A stretch of 64,000 nt of DNA, taken from the NCBI RefSeq assembly GCF_055900595.2, contig NZ_CM148325.1; one strand, 5' to 3'. Positions 8,306 through 48,612 of the stretch are shown here, in pieces; position 1 is the stretch's first letter, and each line of letters starts with the position of its first letter. The notes under the pieces were generated by a model, which was not told where the DNA came from, ran no database searches, and saw nothing but the letters and a program-made list of their open reading frames with translations. A program made the position numbers and the translations under genes.

Positions 8306-9568
8306 ATGCCACATTCACTGTTCAGCACCGATACCGACCTCACCGCCGAAAATCTGCTGCGTTTGCCCGCAGAATTTGGCTGCCCGGTGTGGGTCTACGA
8401 TGCGCAAATTATTCGTCGGCAGATTGCAGCGCTAAAACAGTTTGATGTGGTGCGCTTCGCACAGAAAGCCTGTTCCAATATTCATATTTTGCGCTTAATG
8501 CGTGAGCAGGGCGTAAAAGTGGATTCCGTCTCGTTAGGCGAAATAGAGCGTGCACTGGTGGCGGGTTACAATCCGCAAACGCACCCCGATGATATTGTTT
8601 TTACGGCAGATGTTATCGATCAGGCGACGATTGAACGCGTCAGTGAATTGCAAATTCCGGTGAATGCGGGTTCTGTTGATATGCTCGACCAACTGGGTCA
8701 GGTTTCGCCAGGGCATCGGGTATGGCTGCGTGTTAATCCGGGGTTTGGTCACGGGCATAGCCAAAAAACCAATACCGGTGGCGAAAACAGCAAGCACGGT
8801 ATCTGGTATACCGACCTGCCCGCCGCACTGGAAGTGATACAACGTCATCATCTGCAGCTGGTCGGTGTTCACATGCATATTGGTTCCGGCGTTGATTACG
8901 CACATCTGGAGCAGGTGTGTGGTGCTATGGTGCGTCAGGTCATCGAATTTGGTCAGGATTTACAGGCTATTTCTGCGGGCGGTGGGCTTTCTATTCCTTA
9001 TCAACAGGGTGAAGAGGCGGTTGATACCGAACATTATTATGGTCTGTGGAATGCCGCGCGTGAGCAAATCGCCCGCCATTTGGGCCATCCTGTGAAACTG
9101 GAAATTGAACCGGGTCGCTTTCTGGTAGCGCAGGCTGGCGTATTAATTACTCAAGTGCGGAGCGTCAAACAAATGGGTAGCCGCCACTTTGTGCTGGTTG
9201 ATGCCGGGTTCAACGATCTGATGCGCCCGGCAATGTACGGTAGTTACCACCATATCAGTGCCCTGGCATCTGATGGTCGTTCTCTGGAACACGCACCAAC
9301 GGTGGAAACCGTCGTCGCCGGACCGTTATGTGAATCGGGCGATGTCTTTACCCAGCAGGAAGGGGGAAATGTTGAAACCCGCGCCTTGCCGGAAGTGAAG
9401 GCGGGTGATTATCTGGTACTGCATGATACGGGGGCATATGGCGCATCAATGTCATCCAACTACAACAGCCGTCCGCTGTTACCAGAAGTTCTGTTTGATA
9501 ATGGTCAGGCGCGGTTGATTCGCCGTCGCCAGACCATTGAAGAATTACTGGCGCTGGAATTGCTTTAA
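8306..9568 (+). CDS. lysA: Diaminopimelate decarboxylase
   Basis: 420 aa; PLP-dependent Orn/DAP decarboxylase fold; classic lysR-lysA pairing. Confidence 0.94.
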   Translation: MPHSLFSTDTDLTAENLLRLPAEFGCPVWVYDAQIIRRQIAALKQFDVVRFAQKACSNIHILRLMREQGVKVDSVSLGEIERALVAGYNPQTHPDDIVFTADVIDQATIERVSELQIPVNAGSVDMLDQLGQVSPGHRVWLRVNPGFGHGHSQKTNTGGENSKHGIWYTDLPAALEVIQRHHLQLVGVHMHIGSGVDYAHLEQVCGAMVRQVIEFGQDLQAISAGGGLSIPYQQGEEAVDTEHYYGLWNAAREQIARHLGHPVKLEIEPGRFLVAQAGVLITQVRSVKQMGSRHFVLVDAGFNDLMRPAMYGSYHHISALASDGRSLEHAPTVETVVAGPLCESGDVFTQQEGGNVETRALPEVKAGDYLVLHDTGAYGASMSSNYNSRPLLPEVLFDNGQARLIRRRQTIEELLALELL

Positions 9569-23870: not shown

Positions 23871-24665
23871 ATGAAACAGTATTTAGAACTGATGCAAAAA
23901 GTGCTCGACGAAGGCACACAGAAAAACGACCGTACCGGAACCGGAACGCTTTCCATTTTTGGTCATCAGATGCGTTTTAACCTGCAGGATGGATTCCCGC
24001 TGGTGACAACCAAACGTTGTCACCTGCGTTCCATCATCCACGAACTGCTGTGGTTCCTGCAGGGCGACACTAACATTGCTTATCTACACGAAAACAATGT
24101 CACCATCTGGGACGAATGGGCCGATGAAAACGGCGACCTCGGGCCAGTGTATGGTAAACAGTGGCGCGCCTGGCCAACGCCGGATGGTCGTCATATTGAC
24201 CAGATCACTACGGTACTGAACCAGCTGAAAAACGACCCGGATTCGCGCCGCATTATTGTTTCAGCGTGGAACGTAGGCGAACTGGATAAAATGGCGCTGG
24301 CACCGTGCCATGCATTCTTCCAGTTCTATGTGGCAGACGGCAAACTCTCTTGCCAGCTTTATCAGCGCTCCTGTGACGTCTTCCTCGGCCTGCCGTTCAA
24401 CATTGCCAGCTACGCGTTACTGGTGCATATGATGGCGCAGCAGTGCGATCTGGAAGTGGGTGATTTTGTCTGGACCGGTGGCGACACGCATCTGTACAGC
24501 AACCATATGGATCAAACTCATCTGCAATTAAGCCGCGAACCGCGTCCGCTGCCGAAGTTGATTATCAAACGTAAACCCGAATCCATCTTCGACTACCGTT
24601 TCGAAGACTTTGAGATTGAAGGCTACGATCCACATCCGGGCATTAAAGCGCCGGTGGCTATCTAA
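23871..24665 (+). CDS. thyA: Thymidylate synthase
   Basis: 264 aa; canonical ThyA sequence with active-site Cys in [13 protein letters not shown]. Confidence 0.97.
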
Positions 24666-24686
24666 TTACGAAACATCCTGCCAGAG

Positions 24687-24714
24687 CCGACGCCAGTGTG
24701 CGTCGGTTTTTTTT
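24687..24714 (+). terminator. Rho-independent terminator after thyA
   Basis: Stem ccgacgc/gcgtcgg with 6-nt loop followed by a run of eight T. Confidence 0.7.
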
Positions 24715-24849
24715 ACCCTCCGTTAAATTCTTCGAGACGCCTTCCCGAAATTTTGCAACCTCCTGCAACGGCGTAAATAGTCCGGAAGATGCGCCGAAGA
24801 AATAGAAACTGGCCCTCGTCTTTTTTTCTCCTCGCTCCATACTGCCGGC

Positions 24850-25320
24850 ATGAAAACACAACATGGTTATACGCTGATTGAAACGCTGGTCGCGATGCTG
24901 ATTCTGGTCATGCTAAGCGCAAGTGGACTCTATGGCTGGCAATACTGGCAGCAGTCGCAACGGCTATGGCAAACCGCCAGCCAGGCGCGGGACTATTTGC
25001 TCTATTTACGTGAAGATGCCAACTGGCATAACCGCGACCACAGTATCAGCGTTATCAGGGAGGGGGCGTTATGGTGCCTTGTGAGTTCCGCGGCTGGGGC
25101 CAATACCTGTCATGGCAGTTCACCATTGGTCTTTGTGCCACGCTGGCCCGAAGTCGAAATGAGCGACCTGACACCTTCGCTTGCTTTCTTTGGCCTGCGC
25201 AATACCGCATGGGCCGGGCATATTCGCTTTAAAAACTCAACGGGCGAGTGGTGGCTGGTGGTTTCGCCGTGGGGAAGACTCCGGCTTTGTCAGCAAGGAG
25301 AAACAGAAGCATGCCTGTAA
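24850..25320 (+). CDS. ppdA: Prepilin peptidase-dependent protein A (type IV pilin-like)
   Basis: 156 aa; N-terminal [14 protein letters not shown] prepilin-type leader and hydrophobic segment. Confidence 0.88.
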
Positions 25321-25874
25321 AAGAGCTAGGTTTTTCTCTGCTGGAAGTGTTGATTGCTATGGCGATCAGTAGCGTATTGTTGCTGGGGGCAGCACGCTTT
25401 CTGCCTGCGTTACAGCGTGAAAGTTTAACGAGCACCCGTAAGCTGGCGCTGGAAGATGAAATCTGGCTGCGGGTATTTACCGTCGCGAAGCATCTCCAGA
25501 GGGCGGGTTATTGTCATGGCAGCTGTACCGGCGAAGGGCTGGAAATTGTCGGACAGGGGGACTGTATCATTGTGCAGTGGGATGCGAACAGTAACGGTAT
25601 CTGGGATCGCGAACCGGTAAAAGAGTCCGACCAGATTGCATTTCGTCTGAAGGAGCATGTGCTGGAAACGCTACGCGGTGCGACATCCTGTGAAGGTAAG
25701 GGCTGGGATAAAGTCACTAATCCGGATGCCATCATTATCGACACTTTTCAGGTTACCCGACAGGATGTCAGCGGTTTCTCGCCGGTGTTGACGGTTAATA
25801 TGCATGCTGCCAGCAAGGCTGATCCACAAACTGTGGTGGATGCCAGCTATAGCGTGACAGGATTCAACCTGTGA
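25311..25874 (+). CDS. ppdB: Prepilin peptidase-dependent protein B
   Basis: 187 aa from ATG at 25311 ([18 protein letters not shown]...), aggag RBS; overlaps the ppdA stop; the track ORF is a 21-codon upstream extension. Confidence 0.85.
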
Positions 25875-26278
25875 ACCGCGAAAAGGGTGTTTCGTCACTG
25901 GCTCTGGTCCTTATGCTGCTGGTTTTGGGTAGCTTGCTATTGCAAGGAATGAGTCAGCAGGATCGCAGTTTTGCCTCTCGCGTGAGCATGGAAAGTCAGT
26001 CATTGCGCCGCCAGGCCATCGTTCAGTCGACGCTGGAGTGGGGAAAAATGCACGCCTGGCAGACGCAGCCCGCAGTTCAGTGCTTACTGTACGCTGCCAC
26101 CGGTGCCCGGGTTTGTCTGCGTTTATTGGCAGATAATGAAGCCTTATTGATTGCCGGTTATGAAGGCGTTTCGTTGTGGCGAACAGGCGAAGTCATCGAT
26201 GGAAACATTGTTTTTTCGCCACGCGGCTGGAGCGATTTTTGTCCGCTGAAAGAGAGGGCGTTATGTCAGCTTCCCTGA
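25871..26278 (+). CDS. ygdB: Pilus-assembly-like protein YgdB
   Basis: 135 aa; GTG start overlapping the ppdB stop; N-terminal hydrophobic segment. Confidence 0.8.
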
Positions 26279-26586
26279 AGAATCAACAAGGCTTTAGCCT
26301 GCCGGAGGTGATGTTGGCGATGGTGCTGATGGTGATGATTGTCACTGCGTTATCGGGTTTCCAGCGAACATTAATGAACAGTCTTGCCAGCAGAAACCAG
26401 TACCAACAGCTCTGGCGGCATGGCTGGCAGCAAACGCAACTGCGTGCGATTTCGCCACCTGCCAACTGGCAGGTCAACCGAATGCAGACATCGCAGGCGG
26501 GATGTGTCAGCATCAGCGTTACGCTAGTTTCACCCGGGGGCAGAGAAGGCGAGATGACCCGCCTGCATTGCCCGAATCGTCAGTAG
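26263..26586 (+). CDS. ppdC: Prepilin peptidase-dependent protein C
   Basis: 107 aa from ATG at 26263 ([21 protein letters not shown]...), prepilin-type N-terminus; overlaps the ygdB stop. Confidence 0.85.
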
Positions 26587-26598
26587 TCAGGAGCCGCT

Positions 26599-29500
26599 AT
26601 GTTAAGGGTCTACCATTCCAATCGTCTGGACGTGCTGGAAGCGTTGATGGAGTTTATTGTCGAACGCGAACGGCTGGACGATCCTTTCGAACCAGAGATG
26701 ATTCTGGTGCAAAGTACCGGTATGGCGCAGTGGCTGCAAATGACCCTGTCGCAAAAGTTTGGTATTGCGGCAAACATTGATTTTCCGCTGCCAGCGAGCT
26801 TTATCTGGGATATGTTCGTCCGGGTGTTACCGGAGATCCCCAAAGAGAGCGCCTTTAACAAACAGAGCATGAGCTGGAAACTGATGACTCTGCTGCCGCA
26901 ACTGTTGGAGCGCGAAGACTTTACCCTGTTGCGGCATTATCTGACTGACGATAGCGACAAGCGAAAACTGTTCCAGCTTTCCTCTAAAGCGGCGGACCTG
27001 TTTGACCAGTATCTGGTCTATCGCCCGGACTGGCTGGCACAGTGGGAAGCCGGGAATCTGGTAGAAGGACTTGGAGAGGCGCAGGCCTGGCAAGCGCCGT
27101 TGTGGAAGGCGCTGGTGGAATATACCCATCAACTCGGGCAACCGCGCTGGCACCGCGCCAATCTCTATCAGCGCTTTATCGAAACGCTGGAGTCCGCGAC
27201 GACCTGCCCGCCGGGGTTACCTTCGCGCGTCTTTATATGCGGTATTTCCGCGTTACCGCCTGTTTATCTCCAGGCGCTACAGGCGCTGGGTAAACATATT
27301 GAAATCCATCTCCTGTTTACCAACCCCTGCCGTTATTACTGGGGCGACGTTAAAGATCCTGCTTATCTGGCGAAACTGCTGACTCGCCAGCGCCGACACA
27401 GTTTTGAAGATCGCGAATTACCGCTATTTCGCGACAGCGAAAATGCCGGGCAGCTCTTTAACAGCGATGGTGAACAGGATGTCGGCAACCCGCTGCTGGC
27501 CTCATGGGGCAAGCTTGGGCGCGACTACATTTATCTCCTTTCTGATCTGGAGAGCAGCCAGGAGCTGGACGCTTTTGTCGATGTGACGCCAGATAACCTG
27601 CTGCATAACATTCAGTCTGACATTCTGGAACTGGAGAACCGCGCCGTTGCGGGTGTGAACATCGAAGAGTTTTCCCGTAGCGATAACAAACGCCCTCTTG
27701 ATCCACTGGATAGCAGTATCACCTTCCACGTTTGCCATAGCCCGCAGCGTGAAGTTGAAGTTTTACACGATCGCTTGCTGGCGATGCTGGAGGAAGACCC
27801 GACACTTACTCCGCGCGACATCATCGTGATGGTGGCCGACATCGACAGCTACAGTCCGTTTATTCAGGCTGTGTTTGGTAGCGCACCTGCGGATCGTTAC
27901 CTGCCTTACGCCATTTCCGACCGTCGAGCGCGGCAGTCGCATCCGGTACTTGAAGCGTTTATCAGCCTGTTATCGTTGCCAGACAGCCGATTTGTGTCGG
28001 AAGACGTGCTGGCATTACTGGATGTGCCGGTGCTGGCGGCGCGGTTTGACATCACCGAAGAAGGGCTGCGTTATTTACGTCAGTGGGTCAACGAGTCCGG
28101 AATTCGTTGGGGGATAGATGACGATAACGTTCGCGAGCTGGAACTCCCCGCCACAGGTCAACACACCTGGCGGTTTGGCCTGACGCGCATGTTGCTGGGC
28201 TACGCGATGGAAAGCGCGCAGGGCGAGTGGCAATCGGTTCTGCCTTATGATGAATCGAGCGGCTTAATTGCAGAACTGGTGGGGCATCTGGCTTCACTGC
28301 TAATGCAGCTAAACATCTGGCGTCGCGGGCTGGCGCAGGAGCGTCCGCTGGAAGAGTGGTTGCCGGTTTGTCGCGATATGCTCAACGCCTTCTTCCTGCC
28401 GGATGCGGAAACCGAAGCGGCGATGACGCTGATCGAACAACAATGGCAGGCGATTATCGCCGAAGGTTTAGGTGCGCAGTATGGCGACGCGGTGCCGTTG
28501 TCACTATTGCGTGATGAACTGGCACAACGTCTGGATCAGGAACGTATCAGCCAGCGTTTTCTCGCCGGGCCGGTTAACATTTGTACTCTGATGCCAATGC
28601 GTTCCATCCCATTCAGAGTGGTTTGCCTGCTGGGAATGAACGACGGCGTTTACCCACGCCAGCTTGCGCCATTGGGCTTTGACCTGATGAGTCAGAAACC
28701 GAAGCGTGGCGACCGTAGCCGTCGCGATGATGACCGCTATCTGTTCCTGGAAGCGTTAATTTCCGCGCAGCAAAAACTCTATATCAGCTATATCGGGCGT
28801 TCCATTCAGGATAACAGTGAACGTTTCCCGTCGGTGCTGGTGCAGGAACTGATCGACTACATCGGGCAAAGCCATTATCTACCGGGCGATGAAGCGCTCA
28901 ATTGTGATGAAAGCGAGGCGAGGGTAAAAGCGCATCTTACTTGCCTCCATACCCGGATGCCGTTTGATCCACAAAACTATCAGCCAGGTGAACGACAAAG
29001 CTATGCACGTGAGTGGTTACCTGCGGCAAGCCAGGCTGGTAAGGCACATTCTGAATTTGTTCAGCCGCTGCCGTTTACCTTGCCGGAAACCGTGCCGCTG
29101 GAGACGCTACAACGATTCTGGGCGCATCCGGTGCGGGCGTTTTTCCAGATGCGCTTGCAGGTGAACTTCCGTACCGAAGATAGCGAAATTCCCGACACCG
29201 AACCTTTTATTCTTGAAGGGCTTAGTCGTTATCAAATCAACCAGCAGTTATTGAATGCTCTGGTCGAGCAAGATGATGCCGATCGCTTATTCCGCCGCTT
29301 CCGGGCGGCAGGGGATTTACCGTATGGCGCTTTTGGTGAAATTTTCTGGGAAACACAGTGTCAGGAGATGCAGCAGCTTGCCGACAGAGTCATTGCCTGT
29401 CGCCAACCGGGGCAAAGTATGGAAATTGATCTCGCCTGCAACGGTGTGCAAATAACGGGTTGGTTGCCGCAGGTGCAGCCGGATGGCCTGTTACGCTGGC

Positions 29501-29967
29501 GTCCCTCTTTATTAAGTGTGGCGCAGGGAATGCAACTTTGGCTGGAACACCTTGTCTACTGTGCCAGCGGTGGTAATGGTGAAAGTCGCCTTTTTCTACG
29601 CAAAGACGGCGAGTGGCGTTTTCCGCCGCTTGCAGCCGAACAGGCTTTACATTACCTCTCAGAACTGATTGAGGGGTATCGTGAAGGGATGTCCACGCCG
29701 CTGCTGGTGTTACCTGAAAGTGGCGGCGCGTGGCTAAAAACCTGTTATGACGCGCAAAACGATGCCATGCTGGATGACGATTCCACGTTGCAGAAAGCCC
29801 GTACGAAATTCCTTCAGGCTTACGAAGGCAACATGATGGTGCGTGGAGAAGGTGATGATATCTGGTATCAACGGCTCTGGCGGCAATTAACACCAGAGAC
29901 AATGGAAGCCATCGTTGAACAGTCGCAACGTTTCCTGTTACCGCTGTTTCGCTTTAATCAGTCATGA
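26599..29967 (+). CDS. recC: Exodeoxyribonuclease V gamma subunit
   Basis: 1122 aa; RecC sequence; first gene of the recC-ptrA-recB-recD cluster. Confidence 0.96.
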   Translation: MLRVYHSNRLDVLEALMEFIVERERLDDPFEPEMILVQSTGMAQWLQMTLSQKFGIAANIDFPLPASFIWDMFVRVLPEIPKESAFNKQSMSWKLMTLLPQLLEREDFTLLRHYLTDDSDKRKLFQLSSKAADLFDQYLVYRPDWLAQWEAGNLVEGLGEAQAWQAPLWKALVEYTHQLGQPRWHRANLYQRFIETLESATTCPPGLPSRVFICGISALPPVYLQALQALGKHIEIHLLFTNPCRYYWGDVKDPAYLAKLLTRQRRHSFEDRELPLFRDSENAGQLFNSDGEQDVGNPLLASWGKLGRDYIYLLSDLESSQELDAFVDVTPDNLLHNIQSDILELENRAVAGVNIEEFSRSDNKRPLDPLDSSITFHVCHSPQREVEVLHDRLLAMLEEDPTLTPRDIIVMVADIDSYSPFIQAVFGSAPADRYLPYAISDRRARQSHPVLEAFISLLSLPDSRFVSEDVLALLDVPVLAARFDITEEGLRYLRQWVNESGIRWGIDDDNVRELELPATGQHTWRFGLTRMLLGYAMESAQGEWQSVLPYDESSGLIAELVGHLASLLMQLNIWRRGLAQERPLEEWLPVCRDMLNAFFLPDAETEAAMTLIEQQWQAIIAEGLGAQYGDAVPLSLLRDELAQRLDQERISQRFLAGPVNICTLMPMRSIPFRVVCLLGMNDGVYPRQLAPLGFDLMSQKPKRGDRSRRDDDRYLFLEALISAQQKLYISYIGRSIQDNSERFPSVLVQELIDYIGQSHYLPGDEALNCDESEARVKAHLTCLHTRMPFDPQNYQPGERQSYAREWLPAASQAGKAHSEFVQPLPFTLPETVPLETLQRFWAHPVRAFFQMRLQVNFRTEDSEIPDTEPFILEGLSRYQINQQLLNALVEQDDADRLFRRFRAAGDLPYGAFGEIFWETQCQEMQQLADRVIACRQPGQSMEIDLACNGVQITGWLPQVQPDGLLRWRPSLLSVAQGMQLWLEHLVYCASGGNGESRLFLRKDGEWRFPPLAAEQALHYLSELIEGYREGMSTPLLVLPESGGAWLKTCYDAQNDAMLDDDSTLQKARTKFLQAYEGNMMVRGEGDDIWYQRLWRQLTPETMEAIVEQSQRFLLPLFRFNQS

Positions 29968-30142
29968 GTGCTGTATAAAAATTGCGCAATTCATCTGCTT
30001 ACTTTATGATGCGCACCAGTCACGGACTGATGGTTATATAGACATAGGCTGACTCGTGCAGCACAAGATTAAATTCTGCCGGATAATTTTCGTTAACGTA
30101 TTGAATCTGGACAGAAAATAAAGTTGATAATGAGGTCCGTGA

Positions 30143-33031
30143 ATGCCCCGCAGCACCTGGTTCAAAGCATTATTGTTGTTTGTTGCCCTTTGGGCACCCT
30201 TAAGTCAGGCAGAAACGGGATGGCAGCCGATTCAGGAAACCATCCGTAAAAGTGGTAAAGATAACCGCCAGTATCAGGCTATACGTCTGGATAACGGTAT
30301 GGTGGTTTTGCTGGTTTCTGACCCGCAGGCGGTTAAATCGCTCTCGGCGCTGGTGGTGCCCGTTGGGTCGCTGGAAGATCCCGAGGCGTACCAGGGGCTG
30401 GCACATTACCTTGAACATATGAGTCTGATGGGTTCGAAAAAGTACCCGCAGGCTGACAGTCTGGCTGAATACCTCAAAATGCACGGCGGCAGCCACAATG
30501 CCAGCACGGCACCGTATCGCACGGCTTTCTATCTGGAAGTTGAGAACGACGCCTTACCCGGTGCGGTAGACCGCCTGGCCGATGCTATTGCTGAACCCTT
30601 GCTCGACAAGAAATACGCCGAACGTGAGCGTAATGCGGTGAACGCTGAATTAACCATGGCGCGTACGCGTGATGGGATGCGCATGGCACAGGTCAGCGCA
30701 GAAACCATTAACCCGGCACACCCAGGTTCAAAGTTTTCTGGTGGTAACCTCGAAACTTTAAGCGATAAACCCGGCAATCCGGTACAGCAGGCGCTGAAAG
30801 ATTTCCACGAGAAATATTACTCTGCCAATCTGATGAAGGCGGTTATATACAGCAATAAACCGTTGTCGGAGTTGGCAAAAATGGCGGCGGACACTTTTGG
30901 TCGCGTGCCGAACAAAGAGAGCAAAAAACCGGAAATCACCGTGCCGGTAGTCACCGACGCGCAAAAGGGCATTATCATTCATTACGTCCCGGCGCTGCCG
31001 CGTAAAGTTCTGCGCGTTGAGTTTCGCATCGATAACAATTCAGCGAAGTTCCGTAGTAAAACGGATGAATTGATTACCTATCTGATTGGTAATCGCAGCC
31101 CAGGTACACTTTCTGACTGGCTGCAAAAGCAGGGATTAGTTGAGGGCATTAGCGCCAATTCCGATCCTATCGTCAACGGCAACAGCGGCGTATTAGCGAT
31201 CTCTGCGTCTTTAACCGATAAAGGTCTGGCGAATCGCGATCAGGTTGTGGCGGCCATTTTTAGCTACCTCAATCTGTTACGCGAAAAAGGGATTGATAAA
31301 CAATACTTCGATGAACTGGCGAATGTGCTGGATATCGACTTTCGTTATCCGTCAATCACCCGTGATATGGATTACGTTGAATGGCTGGCAGATACCATGA
31401 TTCGCGTTCCTGTTGAGCATACGCTGGATGCAGTCAATATTGCCGATCGGTACGATGCTAAAGCAGTAAAAGAACGCCTGGCGATGATGACGCCGCAGAA
31501 TGCGCGTATCTGGTATATCAGCCCGAAAGAGCCGCACAACAAAACGGCTTACTTTGTCGATGCGCCGTATCAGGTAGATAAAATTAGCGCACAAACTTTC
31601 GCCGACTGGCAGAAAAAAGCCGCCGACATTGTGCTCTCTTTGCCAGAGCTTAACCCTTATATTCCTGACGATTTCTCGCTGATTAAGTCAGAGAAGAAAT
31701 ACGACCATCCAGAGCTGATTGTTGATGAGTCGAATCTGCGCGTGGTGTATGCGCCAAGCCGTTATTTTGCCAGCGAACCCAAAGCTGATGTTAGCCTGAT
31801 TTTGCGTAACCCGAAAGCCATGGACAGCGCCCGCAATCAGGTGATGTTTGCGCTCAATGATTATCTTGCCGGACTGGCGCTTGATCAGTTAAGCAACCAG
31901 GCGTCGGTTGGTGGCATAAGTTTTTCCACCAATGCTAACAACGGCCTTATGGTTAATGCCAATGGTTACACCCAGCGCCTGCCGCAGCTGTTCCAGGCTC
32001 TGCTGGAGGGCTACTTTAGCTATACCGCTACGGAAGATCAGCTTGAGCAGGCGAAGTCCTGGTATAACCAGATGATGGATTCCGCAGAAAAGGGCAAAGC
32101 GTTCGAGCAGGCGATTATGCCCGCGCAGATGCTCTCGCAAGTGCCGTACTTCTCGCGAGATGAACGGCGCAAAATTTTGCCTTCAATCACTTTGAAAGAG
32201 GTGCTGGCCTATCGCGACGCCTTAAAATCAGGGGCTCGACCAGAGTTTATGGTTATTGGCAACATGACCGAAGACCAGGCAACAACGCTGGCACGCGATG
32301 TGCAAAAACAGTTGGGCGCTGATGGTTCGGAGTGGTGTCGTAACAAAGATGTCGTGGTCGATAAAAAACAATCCGTCATCTTTGAAAAAGCCGGTAACAG
32401 CACCGACTCCGCACTGGCAGCGGTATTTGTACCGACTGGCTACGATGAATACACCAGCTCAGCCTATAGCTCTCTGCTGGGGCAGATCGTACAGCCGTGG
32501 TTCTACAATCAGTTGCGTACCGAAGAACAGTTGGGCTATGCCGTGTTTGCGTTTCCAATGAGCGTGGGACGTCAGTGGGGCATGGGCTTCCTGTTGCAAA
32601 GCAATGATAAACAGCCTTCATTCTTGTGGGAGCGTTACAAGGCGTTTTTCCCAACCGCAGAGGCAAAATTGCGGACGATGAAGCCAGAAGAGTTTGCGCA
32701 AATCCAGCAGGCGGTAATAACCCAGATGCTGCAGGCACCGCAAACGCTCGGCGAAGAAGCATCGAAGTTAAGTAAAGATTTCGATCGCGGCAATATGCGC
32801 TTCGATTCGCGTGATAAAATCGTGGCCCAGATAAAACTGCTGACGCCGCAAAAACTTGCTGATTTCTTCCATCAGGCGGTGGTCGAGCCGCAAGGCATGG
32901 CTATTCTGTCGCAGATTTCCGGCAGCCAGAACGGGAAAGCCGAATATGTGCATCCTGAAGGTTGGAAAGTGTGGGAGAACGTCAGCGCGTTACAGCAAAC
33001 AATGCCCCTGATGAGTGAAAAGAATGAGTGA
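30143..33031 (+). CDS. ptrA: Protease III (pitrilysin, M16 family)
   Basis: 962 aa; signal peptide; inverted zinc-binding HYLEH motif. Confidence 0.96.
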   Translation: MPRSTWFKALLLFVALWAPLSQAETGWQPIQETIRKSGKDNRQYQAIRLDNGMVVLLVSDPQAVKSLSALVVPVGSLEDPEAYQGLAHYLEHMSLMGSKKYPQADSLAEYLKMHGGSHNASTAPYRTAFYLEVENDALPGAVDRLADAIAEPLLDKKYAERERNAVNAELTMARTRDGMRMAQVSAETINPAHPGSKFSGGNLETLSDKPGNPVQQALKDFHEKYYSANLMKAVIYSNKPLSELAKMAADTFGRVPNKESKKPEITVPVVTDAQKGIIIHYVPALPRKVLRVEFRIDNNSAKFRSKTDELITYLIGNRSPGTLSDWLQKQGLVEGISANSDPIVNGNSGVLAISASLTDKGLANRDQVVAAIFSYLNLLREKGIDKQYFDELANVLDIDFRYPSITRDMDYVEWLADTMIRVPVEHTLDAVNIADRYDAKAVKERLAMMTPQNARIWYISPKEPHNKTAYFVDAPYQVDKISAQTFADWQKKAADIVLSLPELNPYIPDDFSLIKSEKKYDHPELIVDESNLRVVYAPSRYFASEPKADVSLILRNPKAMDSARNQVMFALNDYLAGLALDQLSNQASVGGISFSTNANNGLMVNANGYTQRLPQLFQALLEGYFSYTATEDQLEQAKSWYNQMMDSAEKGKAFEQAIMPAQMLSQVPYFSRDERRKILPSITLKEVLAYRDALKSGARPEFMVIGNMTEDQATTLARDVQKQLGADGSEWCRNKDVVVDKKQSVIFEKAGNSTDSALAAVFVPTGYDEYTSSAYSSLLGQIVQPWFYNQLRTEEQLGYAVFAFPMSVGRQWGMGFLLQSNDKQPSFLWERYKAFFPTAEAKLRTMKPEEFAQIQQAVITQMLQAPQTLGEEASKLSKDFDRGNMRFDSRDKIVAQIKLLTPQKLADFFHQAVVEPQGMAILSQISGSQNGKAEYVHPEGWKVWENVSALQQTMPLMSEKNE

Positions 33032-40191: not shown

Positions 40192-41445
40192 ATGTCGGGA
40201 TCCAACACAGCAATCAGCCGTCGTCGTTTACTGCAAGGCGCGGGTGCCATGTGGCTATTGAGCGTAAGTCAGGTCAGTCTGGCTGCGGTCAGCCAGGTCG
40301 TGGCGGTGCGCGTCTGGCCTGCGTCCAGCTACACCCGTGTGACGGTAGAATCTAATCGTCAGCTGAAATATAAGCAGTTCGCGTTGAGTAACCCTGAACG
40401 CGTGGTGGTGGATATCGAAGATGTAAACCTGAACTCAGTGCTCAAGGGGATGGCGGCACAAATTCGTGCTGATGACCCGTTCATCAAGTCGGCGCGCGTC
40501 GGGCAGTTTGACCCGCAAACCGTGCGGATGGTTTTTGAGTTAAAGCAAAACGTAAAACCGCAGCTGTTTGCCCTTGCTCCGGTCGCCGGGTTTAAAGAGC
40601 GTCTGGTGATGGATCTCTATCCTGCCAATGCTCAGGACATGCAGGACCCGCTGCTGGCGCTGCTGGAGGATTACAATAAAGGCGATCTCGAAAAGCAGGT
40701 GCCGCCTGCGCAGAGTGGCCCGCAGCCAGGCAAAGCAGGGCGCGATCGTCCGATTGTCATTATGCTTGACCCTGGCCATGGCGGCGAAGACTCCGGTGCG
40801 GTGGGGAAATACAAAACGCGTGAAAAAGATGTGGTATTGCAAATTGCCCGCCGTTTGCGCTCTCTGATTGAGAAAGAGGGCAATATGAAAGTTTACATGA
40901 CCCGTAATGAAGACATCTTCATTCCGTTGCAAGTGCGCGTAGCAAAAGCACAGAAACAGCGTGCTGACTTGTTTGTCTCTATTCATGCCGATGCCTTTAC
41001 CAGTCGCCAGCCGAGCGGTTCCTCTGTGTTTGCGCTCTCTACCAAAGGTGCAACCAGTACCGCGGCAAAATATCTGGCGCAAACTCAGAACGCCTCGGAC
41101 TTGATTGGTGGCGTGAGTAAGAGCGGCGACCGTTATGTCGACCATACTATGTTCGATATGGTGCAGTCGCTGACCATTGCCGACAGTCTGAAGTTTGGTA
41201 AAGCTGTGTTGAATAAGCTCGGTAAAATCAACAAGCTGCATAAAAATCAGGTTGAACAAGCCGGGTTTGCCGTGCTGAAAGCGCCTGATATACCCTCCAT
41301 TTTGGTCGAAACGGCGTTTATCAGTAACGTTGAGGAAGAACGTAAACTGAAAACGGCAACCTTCCAGCAGGAAGTTGCGGAATCAATCCTCGCAGGGATA
41401 AAAGCGTATTTTGCCGATGGGGCGACGCTGGCGAGAAGGGGATAA
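40192..41445 (+). CDS. amiC: N-acetylmuramoyl-L-alanine amidase AmiC
   Basis: 417 aa from ATG at 40192 ([23 protein letters not shown]... Tat-type RR signal); gggaga RBS; Amidase_3 catalytic domain. Confidence 0.94.
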
Positions 41446-41613
41446 TGTTTTTATTTATTCAATGAATTTATATTTCGTTGAATAGATAATATTTACCTGA
41501 ATATTAGACGTTGGTTTTGTGACTGATGTCGAATATTTGAATGTCGGCTTGAAAAATAAGCCGACCATCTCTTTAATTAAGCACAATTCCGTGTAATGTA
41601 TATGCATTAGTTA

Positions 41614-41647
41614 ATCATCTTGTAACTGTTAAATCAGGCAAGGCAAT
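41614..41647 (+). promoter_or_regulatory. RAT (ribonucleic antiterminator) element in the operon leader
   Basis: tcatcTTGTaACTGtTAAAtCAGGCAAggCa resembles the SacY/LicT/BglG RAT consensus GGATTGTTACTGATAAAGCAGGCAAAACC; its 3' part overlaps the left arm of the following terminator. Confidence 0.6.
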
Positions 41648-41691
41648 GTTTGAAGTAATTATTACTTCTGACGTGCCTTGCCTTTTTTTTT
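41638..41691 (+). terminator. Leader rho-independent terminator overlapping the RAT
   Basis: Outer stem ggcaaggca/tgccttgcc (41638-41646 and 41674-41682) with an inner stem gaagtaat/attacttc, followed by T9 (41683-41691). Confidence 0.7.
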
Positions 41692-41702
41692 GGAGCTATG
41701 GA

Positions 41703-42527
41703 ATGATCATCGAAAAAGTCATGAACAATAATTGTGTACAGGCATCGATGAATGGACAGGAGGTTATCATTTCTGGGCCTGGCGTCGGTTACAACAAAAA
41801 ATATGGAATGTCGGTCCCTGAGCATCCGGCTAACCGGATTTTTTATGTCAGAAATGAACAAAAAAATAAACTCTACAAATTGATTGAACATGTGGATATT
41901 GAGTATGTTTTTGTTGCCGAAAAAATAGTGCAATATGCGGAGAACAATCTCGAAAAAAATCTCAATCCATCGCTACTATTGATTCTTGCTGATCATATTT
42001 CGAATGCAATATCCCGAGTCGCTTCAGGCATACAAATTAATAATGTTTTCCTTGATGAAATCAAAGCGTTGTACAAAGCAGAGTATGCGATAAGTCGCGA
42101 TGCATTAACTATCATTAATGAGCAATTCAGCGTTCAACTTCCTGATGATGAGATTGGTTTTATAGCATTGCATATTTTAAATAATTATGAAAATTCAGTT
42201 GATTATGAATCAGTACGGATTATTGAGTTGTCGCAAATAATCACGGGGCTTATTGAAGTTGTTTATAACAGAAAGGTGGACAGAAGTTCATTTAATTATT
42301 CCAGGTTCATGATACACCTTAAATATTTTTCAAGTCGCGTATTATGCAATGAAAAAATAAAACAGAAAGATATTGGTGATCTCTATGAACAGTTTCTTGA
42401 GAAAGACATTCTGTTACAGCGCGCAATTCATGAAATTGAAAGGTATTTGTACGCCACTTTTAAATATGAATTGATTTTGGAAGAAAAACTATATCTCTCT
42501 ATTCGCACCAAAGTATTAATGGACTGA
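41703..42527 (+). CDS. BglG/LicT/SacY-family transcriptional antiterminator (CAT domain plus two PRDs)
   Basis: 274 aa from ATG at 41703 (MIIEKVMNNNCVQASMNGQEVIISGPGVGYNKK = CAT RNA-binding domain); conserved His in PRD-like segments (IGFIALHILNN, RFMIHLKYFSS); ggag RBS 7 nt upstream. The track start at 41646 lies inside the terminator hairpin. Confidence 0.8.
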   Translation: MIIEKVMNNNCVQASMNGQEVIISGPGVGYNKKYGMSVPEHPANRIFYVRNEQKNKLYKLIEHVDIEYVFVAEKIVQYAENNLEKNLNPSLLLILADHISNAISRVASGIQINNVFLDEIKALYKAEYAISRDALTIINEQFSVQLPDDEIGFIALHILNNYENSVDYESVRIIELSQIITGLIEVVYNRKVDRSSFNYSRFMIHLKYFSSRVLCNEKIKQKDIGDLYEQFLEKDILLQRAIHEIERYLYATFKYELILEEKLYLSIRTKVLMD

Positions 42528-42558
42528 TTATATATAACATTTATATGAGATAACCCGC

Positions 42559-44139
42559 ATGAAACAAAAGAAAGCCTGGAGTTTTTTTCAGAGCCTGGGA
42601 AAGGCATTTATGTATCCCATCGCTCTGCTAAGTGTATGTGGCATGATGTTAGGGCTAGGAAGTGGTTTAGCCAGCGATGATATGGCAAAATTAATTCCAC
42701 TACTGGCTATTCCCGTAATTAAAACCATTCTTGATTTTATTGTTAGCCTTGGTTTGTTTGCCTTTGTCAATTTACCTGTATTGTTTGCGATAGCTATACC
42801 TCTGGGGTTATTAAAAGAGAAAGAGGATAAAGCCTATGGCGCTTTTTCTGGCTTAATTGGTTTCATGGCGATGCATCTGGGAACGAACTTTTATCTTAAA
42901 CAACATGACTTATTGGTCGCTGCTGATCAAATGTCGACACATGGGCAAACCATTATTCTGGGAATCCAGTCCTACAATACCAGTGTGTTGGGTGGGATTA
43001 TAGCAGGATTATTAGTCGCCAGTATGTATAAAAAGATCGTTAACTTACGTATTCCTGAATCATTAGGATTTTATAGTGGCCCACGCCTGGTGCCTATTAT
43101 TACACTGATTGTGATGAGCGGATTTGGTCTGATCATCCCTTTTATCTGGCCGCCATTTTTCAATCTTTTCATGCTCATTGGCCACTGGATTTCAACTTCC
43201 GGTCCTGTTGGCTATTTTTTCTATGCAGTCGCCGAACGCGTGACGATACCTTTTGGTTTAAATCACCTGGTGACGTCAGTTTTCCGCTTTACCCCCATCG
43301 GCGGATCGGCAGTGATCGGCGGAGAAGAGTATTATGGCACCCTGAACATGTTTATGGCGTACGTCAAAGAGAATGCGGTCATTCCGCTGGATTTGGCGGG
43401 GAAAATGGAACAGGGCAAACTGATGATTCAGTATGGTCTGGCTGGTGCCGCGCTGGCGATGTATCGCACTGCTCATGCTCAAAACAGAAAAGCTATCAAA
43501 GCATTGCTTATTTCCGGGGTGCTTACAGTCATTATTGGCGGCGTCAGCGAACCGATTGAGTTTCTGTTCTTATTTGTCAGTCCACTGCTATTTGTCTTCC
43601 ATGCTTTTATGAATGGATTCGCCAACATGGTCTTGCCATATATGGGCGTGAAGATGGGATTTACTGGCGATCTGATTCAATTTATTAGCTTTGGCGTATT
43701 GCGTGGCACAAGAACAGGTTGGCCAATAGCGGTGTGTGTCGAAGTGGCCTATTTCTTTATTTATTACTTTGTGTTCCGTTGGACTATTCTCAAATTTAAC
43801 CTGATGACGGTAGGCCGTGAAGAGTCCAGTCCTGTCACGCTGAACGCTCATGAGGATACGGCTATAGCGGATATCCCACCGCTTGATAAATCAGAGCTGC
43901 AAGCAGCGGAGCAGATGGTTAAGGCACTTGGTGGTAAAGAGAATATTAAATCCCTGGATAATTGCGTAACTCGTTTACGTTTAACAATCGCAGATATGGG
44001 ATTGATTGACGAGGCAGCAATAAAAAGAGCTGGCGGAATTGCGGTTGTTAAACTTGATCAAAATACCCTACAAGTCATTATCGGTACTAAAGTCATCGCC
44101 TTGCGTCGGGATATGGATAACTACATGGGGATATGCTGA
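42559..44139 (+). CDS. PTS glucose-family EIICB permease (no EIIA domain)
   Basis: 526 aa; about 10 TM segments (EIIC) then a C-terminal EIIB domain with phosphorylatable Cys in NCVTRLRLTIADMGL...AVVKLDQNTLQVIIGTK. Confidence 0.85.
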   Translation: MKQKKAWSFFQSLGKAFMYPIALLSVCGMMLGLGSGLASDDMAKLIPLLAIPVIKTILDFIVSLGLFAFVNLPVLFAIAIPLGLLKEKEDKAYGAFSGLIGFMAMHLGTNFYLKQHDLLVAADQMSTHGQTIILGIQSYNTSVLGGIIAGLLVASMYKKIVNLRIPESLGFYSGPRLVPIITLIVMSGFGLIIPFIWPPFFNLFMLIGHWISTSGPVGYFFYAVAERVTIPFGLNHLVTSVFRFTPIGGSAVIGGEEYYGTLNMFMAYVKENAVIPLDLAGKMEQGKLMIQYGLAGAALAMYRTAHAQNRKAIKALLISGVLTVIIGGVSEPIEFLFLFVSPLLFVFHAFMNGFANMVLPYMGVKMGFTGDLIQFISFGVLRGTRTGWPIAVCVEVAYFFIYYFVFRWTILKFNLMTVGREESSPVTLNAHEDTAIADIPPLDKSELQAAEQMVKALGGKENIKSLDNCVTRLRLTIADMGLIDEAAIKRAGGIAVVKLDQNTLQVIIGTKVIALRRDMDNYMGIC

Positions 44140-45314
44140 TGGATGTTTTTAATACTCCTATTTCCCGCAAAGGAACATATTGTACCCAATGGGACTTTTG
44201 CGAGGACAGATTTGGTGTAAAAGATGTATTACCATTCTCTATTTCAGATATGGATCTTCCGATACCGGAAGCTATCATCAGGGCATTAAAAAAACGTCTG
44301 GAACACCCGATTTTAGGGTACAGCCGTTGGCAGCATGATGACTATCTGAATGCGATAGTCAATTGGTATCATCAACAATATAAAACTGAAATCAAACCAG
44401 AATGGATCACCTATAGCCCAAGCGTGATGTACTCCATTGCTAAAGCAATAGAGTTATTGACATCGCATGGTGATAATATTCTCGTTTTTACACCTGTCTA
44501 TAATGCATTTTTTGATATAATTAAACATAGTGAGAGAAATATTCTGACAGCCTCTTTGATTATAAAAAATGAGGGGGGCTACGCTATCAATTGGCAAGAT
44601 TTTGATCTTAAGATTCAAAGCGCAAAGATGGTGTTATTATGTAATCCTCATAACCCGACAGGAACCGTCTGGTCGGAAGAAGATCTGCATAAAATCGCTG
44701 CAAGCTGTGCAAGACATAATGTCTGGTTATGTTCAGATGAAATTCACAGTGATTTTGTTTTTAATCGTAGCTTTACATCTGCGCTTAAAATAAAAAAAGA
44801 AAAAGTAGTGGTGTTTAATTCGATATCGAAGACATTTAATGTTCCCGCGCTAACAGGATCGTATATGATTTCAACTGACGATAATTTTAATCATAAGTTC
44901 AGAACGATATCAAGATATCGCGATTTTGTAAACTCCCCATCCGTACTGAATATAATTGCAACTATTATTGCCTATAACGAATGTGAGGGATGGTTAAAGT
45001 CATTAAAGGCACATATTGCCTCTAACATTCAATTCACCCAGCAGTATCTGAACGAAAATACTCCAGAATTGATCGTAAGGCCAGCTGATGGTTGCTATTT
45101 TTCGTGGATAGATTGCTCTGCTATTGGTTATCCATTTGATGAATTCTACAGTCGATTAATTCATGAAGGCAAAGTGGGCATTATGGCGGGGAATGTCTAT
45201 GGAACGGAGGGGGAGGGCTACCTTCGTCTGAACCTGGCCTGCGGTCGAGAAAAATTATATATGGGGCTTACGCGTCTTGCGAGTGTAATTAAAAATATTA
45301 ATCAAGGAAAATAA
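44133..45314 (+). CDS. PLP-dependent aminotransferase class I/II, MalY/PatB-like C-S lyase
   Basis: 393 aa; NPHNPTG motif and Schiff-base Lys in NSISKTFN; start overlaps the PTS gene stop (ATGCTGATGGA). Confidence 0.8.
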   Translation: MLMDVFNTPISRKGTYCTQWDFCEDRFGVKDVLPFSISDMDLPIPEAIIRALKKRLEHPILGYSRWQHDDYLNAIVNWYHQQYKTEIKPEWITYSPSVMYSIAKAIELLTSHGDNILVFTPVYNAFFDIIKHSERNILTASLIIKNEGGYAINWQDFDLKIQSAKMVLLCNPHNPTGTVWSEEDLHKIAASCARHNVWLCSDEIHSDFVFNRSFTSALKIKKEKVVVFNSISKTFNVPALTGSYMISTDDNFNHKFRTISRYRDFVNSPSVLNIIATIIAYNECEGWLKSLKAHIASNIQFTQQYLNENTPELIVRPADGCYFSWIDCSAIGYPFDEFYSRLIHEGKVGIMAGNVYGTEGEGYLRLNLACGREKLYMGLTRLASVIKNINQGK

Positions 45315-45316
45315 AA

Positions 45317-45913
45317 ATGAACAGCACGGATCTTATCCATCTCATTAAACATTTTATGCGTAACGAACATAAAGCAGTTGAAGAAGTTATTGATTCCCCC
45401 CTTTCGGAGGTTGCAAATTTAATTAAAGTATTACAGTCTTGTCAGGGGAAAGTTGTTTTTATTGGTGTCGGTAAGTCCGGTATTATTGCCCGAAAACTCG
45501 CCGCAACATTTGCCAGCACTGGAACTCCCTCGTTTTTTGTTCACGGTACTGAAGCCGTACACGGCGATCTTGGGATGGTGGCGAAAGATGATGTTGTTAT
45601 TCTTATTTCAAACAGTGGTGAGACGACAGAAATCCTGGCAACACTACCTAGTCTGAAAAAAATGGGTAATTATTTGATCTCCTTTACCCGCAGTCATCGC
45701 TCATCGCTTGCGATAAGTTGTGATTTATCCGTTGAAATTCCCGTAAAAAGTGAGGCGGATAATTTAGGTTTAGCGCCGTCATGCTCATCAACAGTCGTTC
45801 TGGTTGTTGGTGATGCGGTGGCGCTTGCGCTCTCCGAATTGAAAAAGTTTACTCGTGCTGATTTCGGCTTATATCATCCAGGAGGTGCGCTCGGTATTAA
45901 AGCAAACTCATAA
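45317..45913 (+). CDS. SIS-domain sugar-phosphate isomerase (KdsD/GutQ-like catalytic domain without CBS domains)
   Basis: 198 aa; VVFIGVGKSGIIARKLAATFASTGTPSFFVHGTEAVHGDLGMV...ISNSGET...HPGGALG closely resembles the SIS core of arabinose-5-phosphate isomerases; no C-terminal CBS pair. Confidence 0.8.
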   Translation: MNSTDLIHLIKHFMRNEHKAVEEVIDSPLSEVANLIKVLQSCQGKVVFIGVGKSGIIARKLAATFASTGTPSFFVHGTEAVHGDLGMVAKDDVVILISNSGETTEILATLPSLKKMGNYLISFTRSHRSSLAISCDLSVEIPVKSEADNLGLAPSCSSTVVLVVGDAVALALSELKKFTRADFGLYHPGGALGIKANS

Positions 45914-45983
45914 TTTTAGAATATAAAACAGTAACCGGTCACGCCATCTTTTGGGGTGGCGTTCATTGATGTGAGTGTCAGCT

Positions 45984-46931
45984 ATGAAAAACGTTCTGGT
46001 CACCGTTCCCAGCTTTTCAGCGCGTTGTGTTTCTGCCAGCAAGCTGCTAAGAGAAAATCATTTTAACCTTATTATCAAGAATAATGTGGAGCATCTGGTT
46101 AAATCAGAATCCACAGTATTACGAGAATCTATTTGCGCAGTCATTGCCGGAAAAGATTGTTATCAAGCGGATACGTTATCGCGACTACCAGGAGTGAAAA
46201 TAATATCGAGATTCGGGACAGGGATTGATAATATTGATCTTCATACGGCTCGACAATCAGGTATTGTGGTCAATAATGCTGTTGGGATTAATTCAAATGC
46301 AGTCGCGGAATTTATCATTGGTCTTATTTTTGCGAGCATGAGAAATATCCCCGGTAGCTATCATGCGATGCAAAATGGTTATTGGGGCGAGTCGCATGGC
46401 TGCGAGTTACAAGGTAAACGTATTGGCCTGCTTGGCTACGGCAATATTGGCAAAACACTGGCGAAAAGGTTATCTGGTTTTGATGTTGAGCTTTTAGCTT
46501 TTGACAAACAACCCGATTTCCAGGCCGCAGGCAAAGATGGAGTTCAGTTCGTATCAATTGAAGATATCTTTATGCAGTCTCATGTCATCATCGTTCTTTT
46601 GCCATTTTCTCCTGAGCTGGAGAACTTCATTAGTCATAAATATTTGTCGATGATGCGCAATGGTGCTCTTATCATCAACGCCGCAAGGGGAAAGTTGCTG
46701 GATGAGGGGGCTTTACTTCAGGTAATTGAAGAACGAAATGTTTTTGCAGCACTGGATGTGTTTAGCTCTGAACCGCTAGCGCAATTTAGCCCATTGCTAC
46801 ATGCCAGGAATATCATTACAACGCCGCATATTGCGGCCGCCACCGTTGAGTCATACCAGCAAACCGGGATATACGTTGCCAGGTCGATAATAGATTTCTT
46901 TGCAGGAAGGGAGATAAAAAACGTGCTGTGA
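45984..46931 (+). CDS. D-isomer-specific 2-hydroxyacid dehydrogenase family, NAD(P)-binding
   Basis: 315 aa from ATG at 45984 (MKNVLVTVPSF...; the track ORF starts 3 codons earlier at GTG); GLLGYGNIGKTLAKRL nucleotide-binding motif; catalytic-region motifs NAARGKLLDE and TPHIAAAT. Confidence 0.8.
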   Translation: MKNVLVTVPSFSARCVSASKLLRENHFNLIIKNNVEHLVKSESTVLRESICAVIAGKDCYQADTLSRLPGVKIISRFGTGIDNIDLHTARQSGIVVNNAVGINSNAVAEFIIGLIFASMRNIPGSYHAMQNGYWGESHGCELQGKRIGLLGYGNIGKTLAKRLSGFDVELLAFDKQPDFQAAGKDGVQFVSIEDIFMQSHVIIVLLPFSPELENFISHKYLSMMRNGALIINAARGKLLDEGALLQVIEERNVFAALDVFSSEPLAQFSPLLHARNIITTPHIAAATVESYQQTGIYVARSIIDFFAGREIKNVL

Positions 46932-46957
46932 GTTCAGCTAAGGAAGATTTCAGGTAC

Positions 46958-46991
46958 AAAAAAACCGCAATCTGTGAAACACATTGCGGTT
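46958..46991 (-). terminator. Terminator of the tRNA-fMet operon (bidirectional hairpin)
   Basis: Stem aaccgcaat/attgcggtt with 11-nt loop; on the minus strand it is followed by a U7 tract (the A-run 46958-46964), 19 nt downstream of the tRNA 3' end. Confidence 0.65.
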
Positions 46992-47009
46992 TATCAGCAT
47001 CATAAGTGT

Positions 47010-47086
<77 letters not shown>

Positions 47087-47119
47087 TCACCGTACTGCTT
47101 TACTTCATCAAATTTTGAT

Positions 47120-47196
<77 letters not shown>

Positions 47197-47229
47197 TCAC
47201 CGTACTGCTTTACTTCATCAAATTTTAAT

Positions 47230-47306
<77 letters not shown>

Positions 47307-47514
47307 TCCGTGGATGCGCACTATACTCCGCTCGCGTTTTCATGCAACCTTTTTTTTACCCAGATCACGGATTTGGTATGATTTTGAGCAAAAACAAATC
47401 ACTAAAGCCTGTTTTTTGTGCAAAATTTGCGTCAGGGAGAGGCTGCTCATTTCATTAAACGCGGCGGTTTGTTATCTTCATTGCGCCTTATTTTTTAAAC
47501 TGAAGAAGAGAACA

Positions 47515-48612
47515 ATGAAAGGACGTTGGGTAAAGTACCTTCTTATGGGCACGGTTGTGGCAATGCTTGCCGCCTGCTCTTCCAAACCAACCGATCGCGG
47601 ACAGCAATATAAAGACGGGAAATTTACCCAGCCTTTCTCTCTGGTAAACCAGCCAGATGCCGTTGGCGCGCCAATTAACGCCGGTGATTTTGCCGAGCAA
47701 ATTAACCATATCCGTACTTCGTCACCGCGTCTGTATGGCAACCAGAGTAATGTTTATAATGCGGTGCAGGAGTGGCTACGCGCAGGCGGTGATACCCGCA
47801 ATATGCGTCAGTTCGGCATTGACGCCTGGCAGATGGAAGGTGCCGACAACTATGGCAACGTGCAGTTTACGGGCTATTACACGCCTGTCATTCAGGCGCG
47901 CCATACCCGTCAGGGCGAGTTCCAGTATCCTATTTACCGTATGCCGCCAAAACGTGGTCGTCTGCCGTCTCGTGCGGAGATCTACGCGGGAGCATTGAGC
48001 GATAAATACATCCTCGCTTACAGCAACTCTCTGATGGATAACTTCATTATGGATGTGCAGGGTAGCGGGTATATCGATTTTGGTGATGGCAGTCCGCTTA
48101 ACTTCTTCAGCTATGCCGGAAAGAATGGTCATGCCTATCGCAGTATTGGTAAGGTGCTGATTGACCGTGGCGAAGTGAAAAAAGAAGATATGTCGATGCA
48201 GGCGATTCGTCACTGGGGTGAAACACACAGTGAAGCCGAGGTTCGCGAGCTGCTGGAACAGAACCCGTCTTTCGTCTTCTTTAAACCGCAATCTTTTGCT
48301 CCGGTGAAAGGGGCAAGTGCGGTGCCGCTGGTTGGTCGCGCTTCAGTTGCGTCCGATCGTTCCATTATCCCACCTGGTACAACCTTACTGGCAGAAGTGC
48401 CGCTGCTGGATAATAACGGCAAATTTAACGGTCAGTACGAACTACGGCTGATGGTGGCGCTGGATGTCGGTGGTGCAATCAAAGGCCAACACTTCGATAT
48501 TTATCAAGGTATCGGGCCGGAAGCCGGACACCGCGCAGGTTGGTACAACCACTATGGACGTGTTTGGGTGCTGAAAACCGCCCCGGGCGCAGGTAACGTC
48601 TTTAGCGGCTGA
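47515..48612 (+). CDS. mltA: Membrane-bound lytic murein transglycosylase A
   Basis: 365 aa from ATG at 47515 (MKGRWVKYLLMGTVVAMLAACSSKP..., lipobox LAAC); the track ORF 47233-48612 is an in-frame extension running through tRNA copy 3. Confidence 0.93.
   Translation: MKGRWVKYLLMGTVVAMLAACSSKPTDRGQQYKDGKFTQPFSLVNQPDAVGAPINAGDFAEQINHIRTSSPRLYGNQSNVYNAVQEWLRAGGDTRNMRQFGIDAWQMEGADNYGNVQFTGYYTPVIQARHTRQGEFQYPIYRMPPKRGRLPSRAEIYAGALSDKYILAYSNSLMDNFIMDVQGSGYIDFGDGSPLNFFSYAGKNGHAYRSIGKVLIDRGEVKKEDMSMQAIRHWGETHSEAEVRELLEQNPSFVFFKPQSFAPVKGASAVPLVGRASVASDRSIIPPGTTLLAEVPLLDNNGKFNGQYELRLMVALDVGGAIKGQHFDIYQGIGPEAGHRAGWYNHYGRVWVLKTAPGAGNVFSG

Follow-up and report, generated by a model that had tools for sequence, protein, structure and literature searches.

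The question raised by this locus was whether a short SIS-domain gene, read together with genes of the phosphotransferase system (PTS), encodes a genuine arabinose-5-phosphate (A5P) isomerase, and what such an enzyme might do in that setting. The gene lies on the plus strand at positions 45317-45913 of the 64-kb stretch of DNA analysed here (the window). Based on its open reading frame, Pfam and NCBIfam matches, a PDB match and alignments, it very probably encodes a free-standing SIS-domain D-arabinose-5-phosphate/D-ribulose-5-phosphate (Ru5P) isomerase, orthologous to c3406 of Escherichia coli CFT073, within an antitermination-controlled PTS operon.

Architecture and identity of the SIS protein

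The open reading frame started with ATG at 45317 and ended with a TAA stop (45911-45913), yielding a product of 198 aa. All four motifs that the initial annotation had quoted for the SIS core of KdsD and GutQ were present: GVGKSG (residues 50-55), ATFASTGTPSFFVH (63-76), SNSGET (98-103) and HPGGALG (187-193). A single SIS domain was detected by Pfam (PF01380, residues 41-170, E = 1.6e-25), and no Pfam match to a CBS domain was obtained over the 198 aa. In alignments with the K-12 sequences (NC_000913.3), the protein was co-linear with the SIS halves of KdsD and GutQ (48% and 37% identity, respectively), and its C-terminus fell five residues past HPGGALG, where the CBS pair of KdsD/GutQ (about 125 residues) starts. 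The domain search and the alignment therefore agreed with the annotation, according to which the protein ends before the tandem CBS domains. A CBS remnant in the DNA 3' of the gene was also considered and rejected, as the next gene, encoding a 2-hydroxyacid dehydrogenase, starts about 60-70 nt past the stop, so that no remnant is hidden in another frame.

Among the NCBIfam models, the protein scored 197 bits with KdsD (4e-58), 191.8 with kpsF, 163 with GutQ, 50.8 with HxlB and 19.3 with GmhA. Its score fell narrowly short of the 203.7 cut-off of the kpsF model (TIGR00393), as the alignable part of that profile is limited to positions 1-152 of 268, corresponding to the SIS half. The family cut-offs of HxlB (160) and GmhA (265) were not reached either. 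The KdsD-type assignment of the initial annotation, preferred there over HxlB or GmhA, thus agreed with the profile scores. The structure of the KdsD SIS domain (2xhz) also matched the protein with an E-value of 1e-40. The catalytic residues of KdsD, which we take from mutagenesis and structural work to be K59, H88, E111, E152 and H193, aligned with K53, H82, E105, E146 and H187 of the SIS protein. These five columns were invariant in a 4-sequence alignment as well as in a 14-sequence alignment that included SIS-only Firmicutes proteins, KdsD and GutQ. Judged by its sequence, the protein has a KdsD/GutQ-type SIS core and lacks the CBS pair.

The CBS-less enzyme that the annotation mentioned from the metV island of a uropathogenic E. 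coli does exist, and it is the ortholog of the SIS protein, 97% identical and encoded at the same locus (within the c3405-c3410 block). The SIS protein was identical at 192 of 198 positions to the protein encoded at this locus in CFT073 (NC_004431.1), which is also 198 aa long and is residue-for-residue equal to the sequence of PDB entry 5uqi. Accordingly, the 198-aa 'phosphosugar isomerase' of 5uqi/5vhu matched the SIS protein over its full length (E = 8.8e-121). The six substitutions relative to c3406 (S3N, R15H, H18L, V32F, T104A and R128H) spared every conserved column, and the two genes shared 92% nucleotide identity. In CFT073, the same five-gene module adjoins amiC at the edge of the metV island, which bears a type VI secretion system (T6SS). 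The full-length near-identity and the shared gene order (antiterminator, EIICB, MalY, SIS and dehydrogenase beside amiC) place the gene in the c3406 orthologous group.

In the published record, Bryant et al. described a 'PTS maltose/glucose' block, c3405-c3410, within PAI-CFT073-metV (PMC2831201), an island delimited as c3385-c3410 and about 32 kb long (PMC6315130; PMC3573123), and c3406 was annotated as a 'phosphosugar isomerase' (PMC4032248). Its characterisation as an arabinose-5-phosphate isomerase is credited to Mosberg et al. (2011, J Bacteriol 193:2981) in the reference lists of two later papers. The name given to the window gene by RefSeq/PGAP is 'KpsF/GutQ family sugar-phosphate isomerase'. 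The gene is thus already known, having been characterised, crystallised and routinely annotated. The recombinant c3406 protein of Mosberg et al. reportedly had A5P isomerase activity without CBS domains, and their c3406 deletion mutant is said to have still colonised mice and not to have been attenuated. The A5P isomerase activity assigned here to the window protein is taken over from the report on its 97%-identical CFT073 counterpart, as cited in those lists, a protein that reportedly interconverts A5P and Ru5P and complements a deficiency in A5P isomerase. The missing CBS domains are a published hallmark of c3406 and no argument against such activity.

Organization and control of the operon

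The SIS gene was the fourth of five co-directional, closely spaced genes encoding, in this order, a PRD antiterminator, a PTS EIICB, a MalY/PatB lyase, the SIS protein and a dehydrogenase, consistent with the earlier description of an isomerase embedded in a PTS operon. The locus as a whole comprised amiC, a leader, the five-gene module, three tRNA-Met genes on the minus strand, and mltA.

The first gene of the module (41703-42527, plus strand) encoded a BglG/LicT-family PRD antiterminator (NCBIfam LicT, 227 bits), whose orthologs matched the Pfam families CAT_RBD and PRD. Its start was placed at the ATG at 41703, downstream of a Shine-Dalgarno sequence (GGAG, 41692-41695) and equivalent to the PGAP start; the start of the longest reading frame, at 41646, was rejected because it falls within the terminator hairpin described below. 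The protein is a probable ortholog of PafR, a BglG/SacY-type antiterminator encoded in the metV island of CFT073 (PMC8882828; PMC9981650).

The EIICB gene (42559-44139, plus strand) belonged to the glucose/maltose (MalX-like) family, with a score of 536 bits for TIGR02004 (PTS-IIBC-malX) that lies below the equivalog cut-off of 632, and its orthologs matched the Pfam families PTS_EIIC and PTS_EIIB. As no EIIA domain was present in the EIICB, the transporter probably works with a trans-acting EIIA such as Crr. The third gene (44139-45314, plus strand) encoded a PLP-dependent C-S beta-lyase of the MalY/PatB family (TIGR04350 PatB, 367 bits; cut-off 340), and its closest solved relative was E. 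coli MalY (1d2f, E = 3e-85). The last, accessory gene (45984-46931, plus strand) encoded a D-2-hydroxyacid or phosphoglycerate dehydrogenase-like NAD enzyme, scoring 210 bits with the PGDH model, below its cut-off of 454, and named 'phosphoglycerate dehydrogenase' by PGAP.

The three tRNA-Met(CAT) genes (47010-47306, minus strand; ARAGORN and Rfam RF00005) marked the metZWV site and the island boundary. The mltA reading frame in the ORF list (47233-48612) was extended by about 90 codons in the upstream direction, to a TTG at 47233, and crossed a tRNA-Met gene; the RefSeq annotation for the identical strain places the mltA start near 47515.

In the operon leader, a search with a core pattern identified a RAT-like antiterminator target, TTGTAACTGTTAAATCAGGCAA (41620-41641, plus strand). 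It occurred once in the window, where 0.01 occurrences were expected by chance, and resembles the BglG/SacY RAT consensus. The 5' arm of an intrinsic terminator (41636-41691, plus strand) overlapped the motif. RNA folding resolved this terminator as a hairpin (41636-41683; -29.8 kcal/mol, z = -5.4 relative to shuffled sequences) followed by nine T residues (41683-41691). The RAT-like motif was nearly invariant in the leaders of E. coli, CFT073, Atlantibacter, Citrobacter and Enterobacter, and the terminator stem varied across genera with compensatory changes in five pairs, the U-tract being kept.

The full 29-nt BglG-type RAT consensus gave no match in the search allowing up to three mismatches, and the single leader site was found with the shorter core pattern. 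Within 40-48 kb, the three tRNAs were the sole Rfam matches, with no curated family over the leader, and a generic promoter and terminator scan did not exceed the number of matches obtained with shuffled sequence and failed to pick up the leader terminator with its long loop. Read from its motif and predicted fold, the leader is of the classical BglG/SacY-type antitermination design, located 5' of the antiterminator gene itself.

Distribution, selection and relatives of the cassette

Of the 5426 complete E. coli genomes searched, 1687 (31%) carried the SIS gene, with one copy in each. One of these copies was located on a plasmid record and the others were chromosomal. The window allele belonged to a minority, with 95 of the 1687 copies at least 99% identical to it at the nucleotide level and 1541 at 90-95%. 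Compared with the CFT073 allele, the gene carried 40 synonymous and 6 non-synonymous differences (dS = 0.35, dN/dS = 0.038), while dN/dS ranged from 0.03 to 0.10 for the four neighbouring genes and dS from 0.14 to 0.43 across the module. The low dN/dS of all five genes indicates purifying selection, and therefore that the SIS gene is not a decaying fragment.

These values bear on the reading that the SIS gene is a decaying remnant of kdsD or gutQ, or else a member of the HxlB or GmhA type, for which the sole argument is its short length, also typical of HxlB and GmhA. A truncated kdsD/gutQ pseudogene is excluded by the dN/dS of 0.038, the conserved length and the crystal structure of the full 198-aa protein, and an HxlB or GmhA identity by the scores of 51 and 19 bits against 197 bits for KdsD. 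The protein kept a length of 196-201 aa across genera, and the database matches included more than 100 SIS-only clusters. This reading was hence considered extremely improbable.

The GC content of the module (40.6%, compared to 50.4% for the window) is consistent with horizontal acquisition. The adjoining amiC gene shared just 93% nucleotide identity with that of CFT073, and synonymous divergence was unusually deep (window 40192-46931 compared to 24590-31330 of the CFT073 excerpt). This deep divergence and the rarity of the window allele point to two long-separated allelic lineages, or else to recombination at this hotspot. The two strains also differed downstream: in the window, nothing but the module separated amiC from the tRNA-Met genes, whereas in CFT073 it was followed by the T6SS cluster. 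Within 46932-47310 of the window, the module abutted the three tRNA-Met genes, and the CFT073 T6SS cluster of about 25 kb (1-24590 of the same excerpt) was absent. Within the 'metV island', the T6SS can thus be separated from the sugar module.

Outside E. coli, the amiC/mltA site was likewise occupied by this module in Atlantibacter hermannii, and a Citrobacter carried it at another site, between genes for an LTXXQ-motif protein and an RNase T-family exonuclease. In an Enterobacter, the antiterminator, EIICB, lyase and SIS genes were found without the dehydrogenase at a third site, near a fructose-type PTS, and the SIS protein was 61-63% identical to that of the window. In the excerpts examined, these cassette loci spanned 3382-7606 (L010), 3382-8621 (L013) and 3413-7591 (L012). 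As the cassette occupied three chromosomal sites and lacked the dehydrogenase at one of them, its core consists of four genes that move together. Within the roughly 7 kb inspected on each side of the cassette, none of the genes was a visible integrase.

Based on BLASTP, the best 120 database matches outside the Enterobacteriaceae were all short single-SIS proteins, mostly of 190-218 aa, and those named came from Firmicutes such as Companilactobacillus, Lactiplantibacillus, Mammaliicoccus, Virgibacillus and Enterococcus. Identity to the SIS protein was 52-61% for these matches, compared to 48% for E. coli KdsD. In one Firmicutes context, the SIS-only gene lay beside a Gat-family PTS, DHDPS-like and KDPG-aldolase-like genes and an Mga/PRD regulator. 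A SIS-only homolog of Mammaliicoccus lentus (50% identical) was located in a cluster of RbsD/FucU, LacI, SIS, PfkB kinase and MFS genes (5354-9854 in L007/L008). The LacI-SIS-PfkB-MFS cluster looks like a route of transport, kinase and isomerase leading from a free pentose, possibly D-arabinose, to Ru5P. Gram-positive bacteria generally do not synthesise Kdo. It is plausible that the CBS-less clade is catabolic and not dedicated to Kdo synthesis, and the occurrence of its members in Firmicutes sugar clusters, including this pentose-to-Ru5P-like unit, lends support to that view.

Role of the isomerase and comparison with known systems

In the mechanism proposed for the operon, transport of the cognate sugar would lead the antiterminator, probably PafR, to bind the RAT, allowing read-through of the leader terminator. 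The MalX-like EIICB would import and phosphorylate the sugar, probably with a trans-acting EIIA such as Crr, and the MalY/PatB C-S lyase, the isomerase and the 2-hydroxyacid dehydrogenase would then process the product. The isomerase would most likely interconvert A5P and Ru5P, giving the pathway a link to the pentose phosphate pool instead of working specifically for Kdo synthesis. Within its SIS core, the GKSG and S/T-rich loops would bind the phosphate, and the Lys, His and Glu residues would serve aldose-ketose isomerisation via an enediol. A catabolic role of this kind, as proposed in the initial annotation, is plausible and fits the operon context.

The accessible literature names no imported sugar for this operon. 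The weak step of the mechanism is the route from the transported sugar to A5P. Glucose-family PTS transporters normally give hexose-6-phosphates, from which there is no obvious path to A5P, so that the activity reported in vitro may not be the physiological one. The protein might then isomerise A5P as an ancestral or side activity and act in the cell on another phosphosugar, one that the translationally coupled MalY/PatB C-S lyase would help to generate from the PTS cargo. This is a real possibility, though clearly the less probable one. It is in line with the hexoside-type glucose/maltose family of the EIICB, with the persistence of the antiterminator, EIICB, lyase and SIS genes together at three chromosomal sites down to 61-63% identity, and with the overlap or abutment of the lyase and SIS genes in every cassette. 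The varied sugar clusters that house SIS-only relatives (Gat-family PTS with DHDPS-like and KDPG-aldolase-like genes, or LacI-PfkB-MFS) point the same way, as does a Listeria homolog that was reported to be a glucose-6-phosphate isomerase. Against this, the window protein retained all residues conserved with bona fide A5P isomerases, was nearer to KdsD than to any non-A5P isomerase SIS family, and belongs with a protein whose published characterisation, in the citing literature, names it an A5P isomerase.

A second alternative places the enzyme in biosynthesis, as a back-up or booster of A5P supply for Kdo (LPS core and the linker of group 2 capsules) that is switched on in the host, in a role like that of GutQ. 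GutQ, itself an A5P isomerase in a PTS operon, can replace KdsD according to a paper that cites Meredith and Woodard, and a review lists the c3406 enzyme under LPS precursor supply. For PafR, expression in vivo and an up-regulating effect on capsule genes have been reported. The window gene, for its part, is tied to a transporter and to catabolic-type enzymes, and E. coli already possesses KdsD and GutQ, with KpsF in addition in ExPEC strains. The c3406 deletion mutant reportedly still colonised mice, and the closest relatives outside the Enterobacteriaceae belong to the Gram-positive bacteria, generally understood to lack Kdo. A Kdo-related role is accordingly regarded as unlikely, and an A5P/Ru5P isomerase linked to sugar catabolism is retained as the preferred reading.

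More tentatively, the four-gene cassette may constitute an undescribed catabolic pathway for a cargo such as an S-linked or amino-acid-linked glycoside, the isomerase acting on a different phosphosugar or on an unusual pentose phosphate that enters the pentose phosphate pathway. If so, the identity of the substrate would also bear on the malX-malY pairing of K-12, for which we know of no explanation. Deletion of c3405-c3410 reportedly lowered the urinary-tract fitness of CFT073. With the isomerase already described, the residual value of the locus lies in the operon, which roughly one in three complete E. coli genomes carries. The present analysis adds the leader structure, the corrected antiterminator start, the finding that the cassette is mobile and the affinity of the SIS-only clade to Firmicutes. 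The mobile four-gene cassette, the conserved RAT/terminator leader and an isomerase clade found mainly in Firmicutes sugar-catabolic clusters offer starting points toward the PTS substrate.

Compared with the known A5P isomerases, the window protein shared with KdsD and GutQ the GKSG, ASTGTPSFFVH, SNSGE and HPGGALG motifs and the five presumed catalytic residues, and lacked the tandem CBS domains of about 125 residues that follow the SIS domain in both enzymes and in KpsF. The gutQ gene is likewise located in a PTS operon. Unlike canonical kdsD and gutQ, the window gene appears to have been horizontally acquired, has a low GC content and is not universal, occurring in 31% of complete E. coli genomes.

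A stand-alone SIS architecture was shared with the Bacteroides fragilis (3etn) and Listeria (3fxa) structures (E about 5e-30) and with Firmicutes proteins of about 200 aa named 'KpsF/GutQ family', which were 50-58% identical in the alignment. The Listeria homolog is said to be a glucose-6-phosphate isomerase that prefers glucose-6-phosphate, and substrate specificity would on that account not be uniform within the SIS-only clade. The same architecture was found in gp55 of phage RB69 and gp83 of phage DLP3, predicted A5P isomerases with a biosynthetic role in supplying arabinose for DNA modification (PMC13326640). The genomic contexts of these single-SIS homologs (capsule/Kdo genes, phage DNA arabinosylation, Gat-family PTS, or LacI-PfkB-MFS) differed from that of the window gene.

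The closest parallel to the rest of the operon was the malX-malY pair of K-12, to which the window EIICB (526-536 bits) and lyase (1d2f, E = 3e-85) were paralogous and arranged in the same order. The malXY genes are controlled by the MalI repressor; the window operon is controlled instead by a PRD antiterminator with its RAT/terminator leader, and it carries the SIS isomerase and the dehydrogenase in addition.
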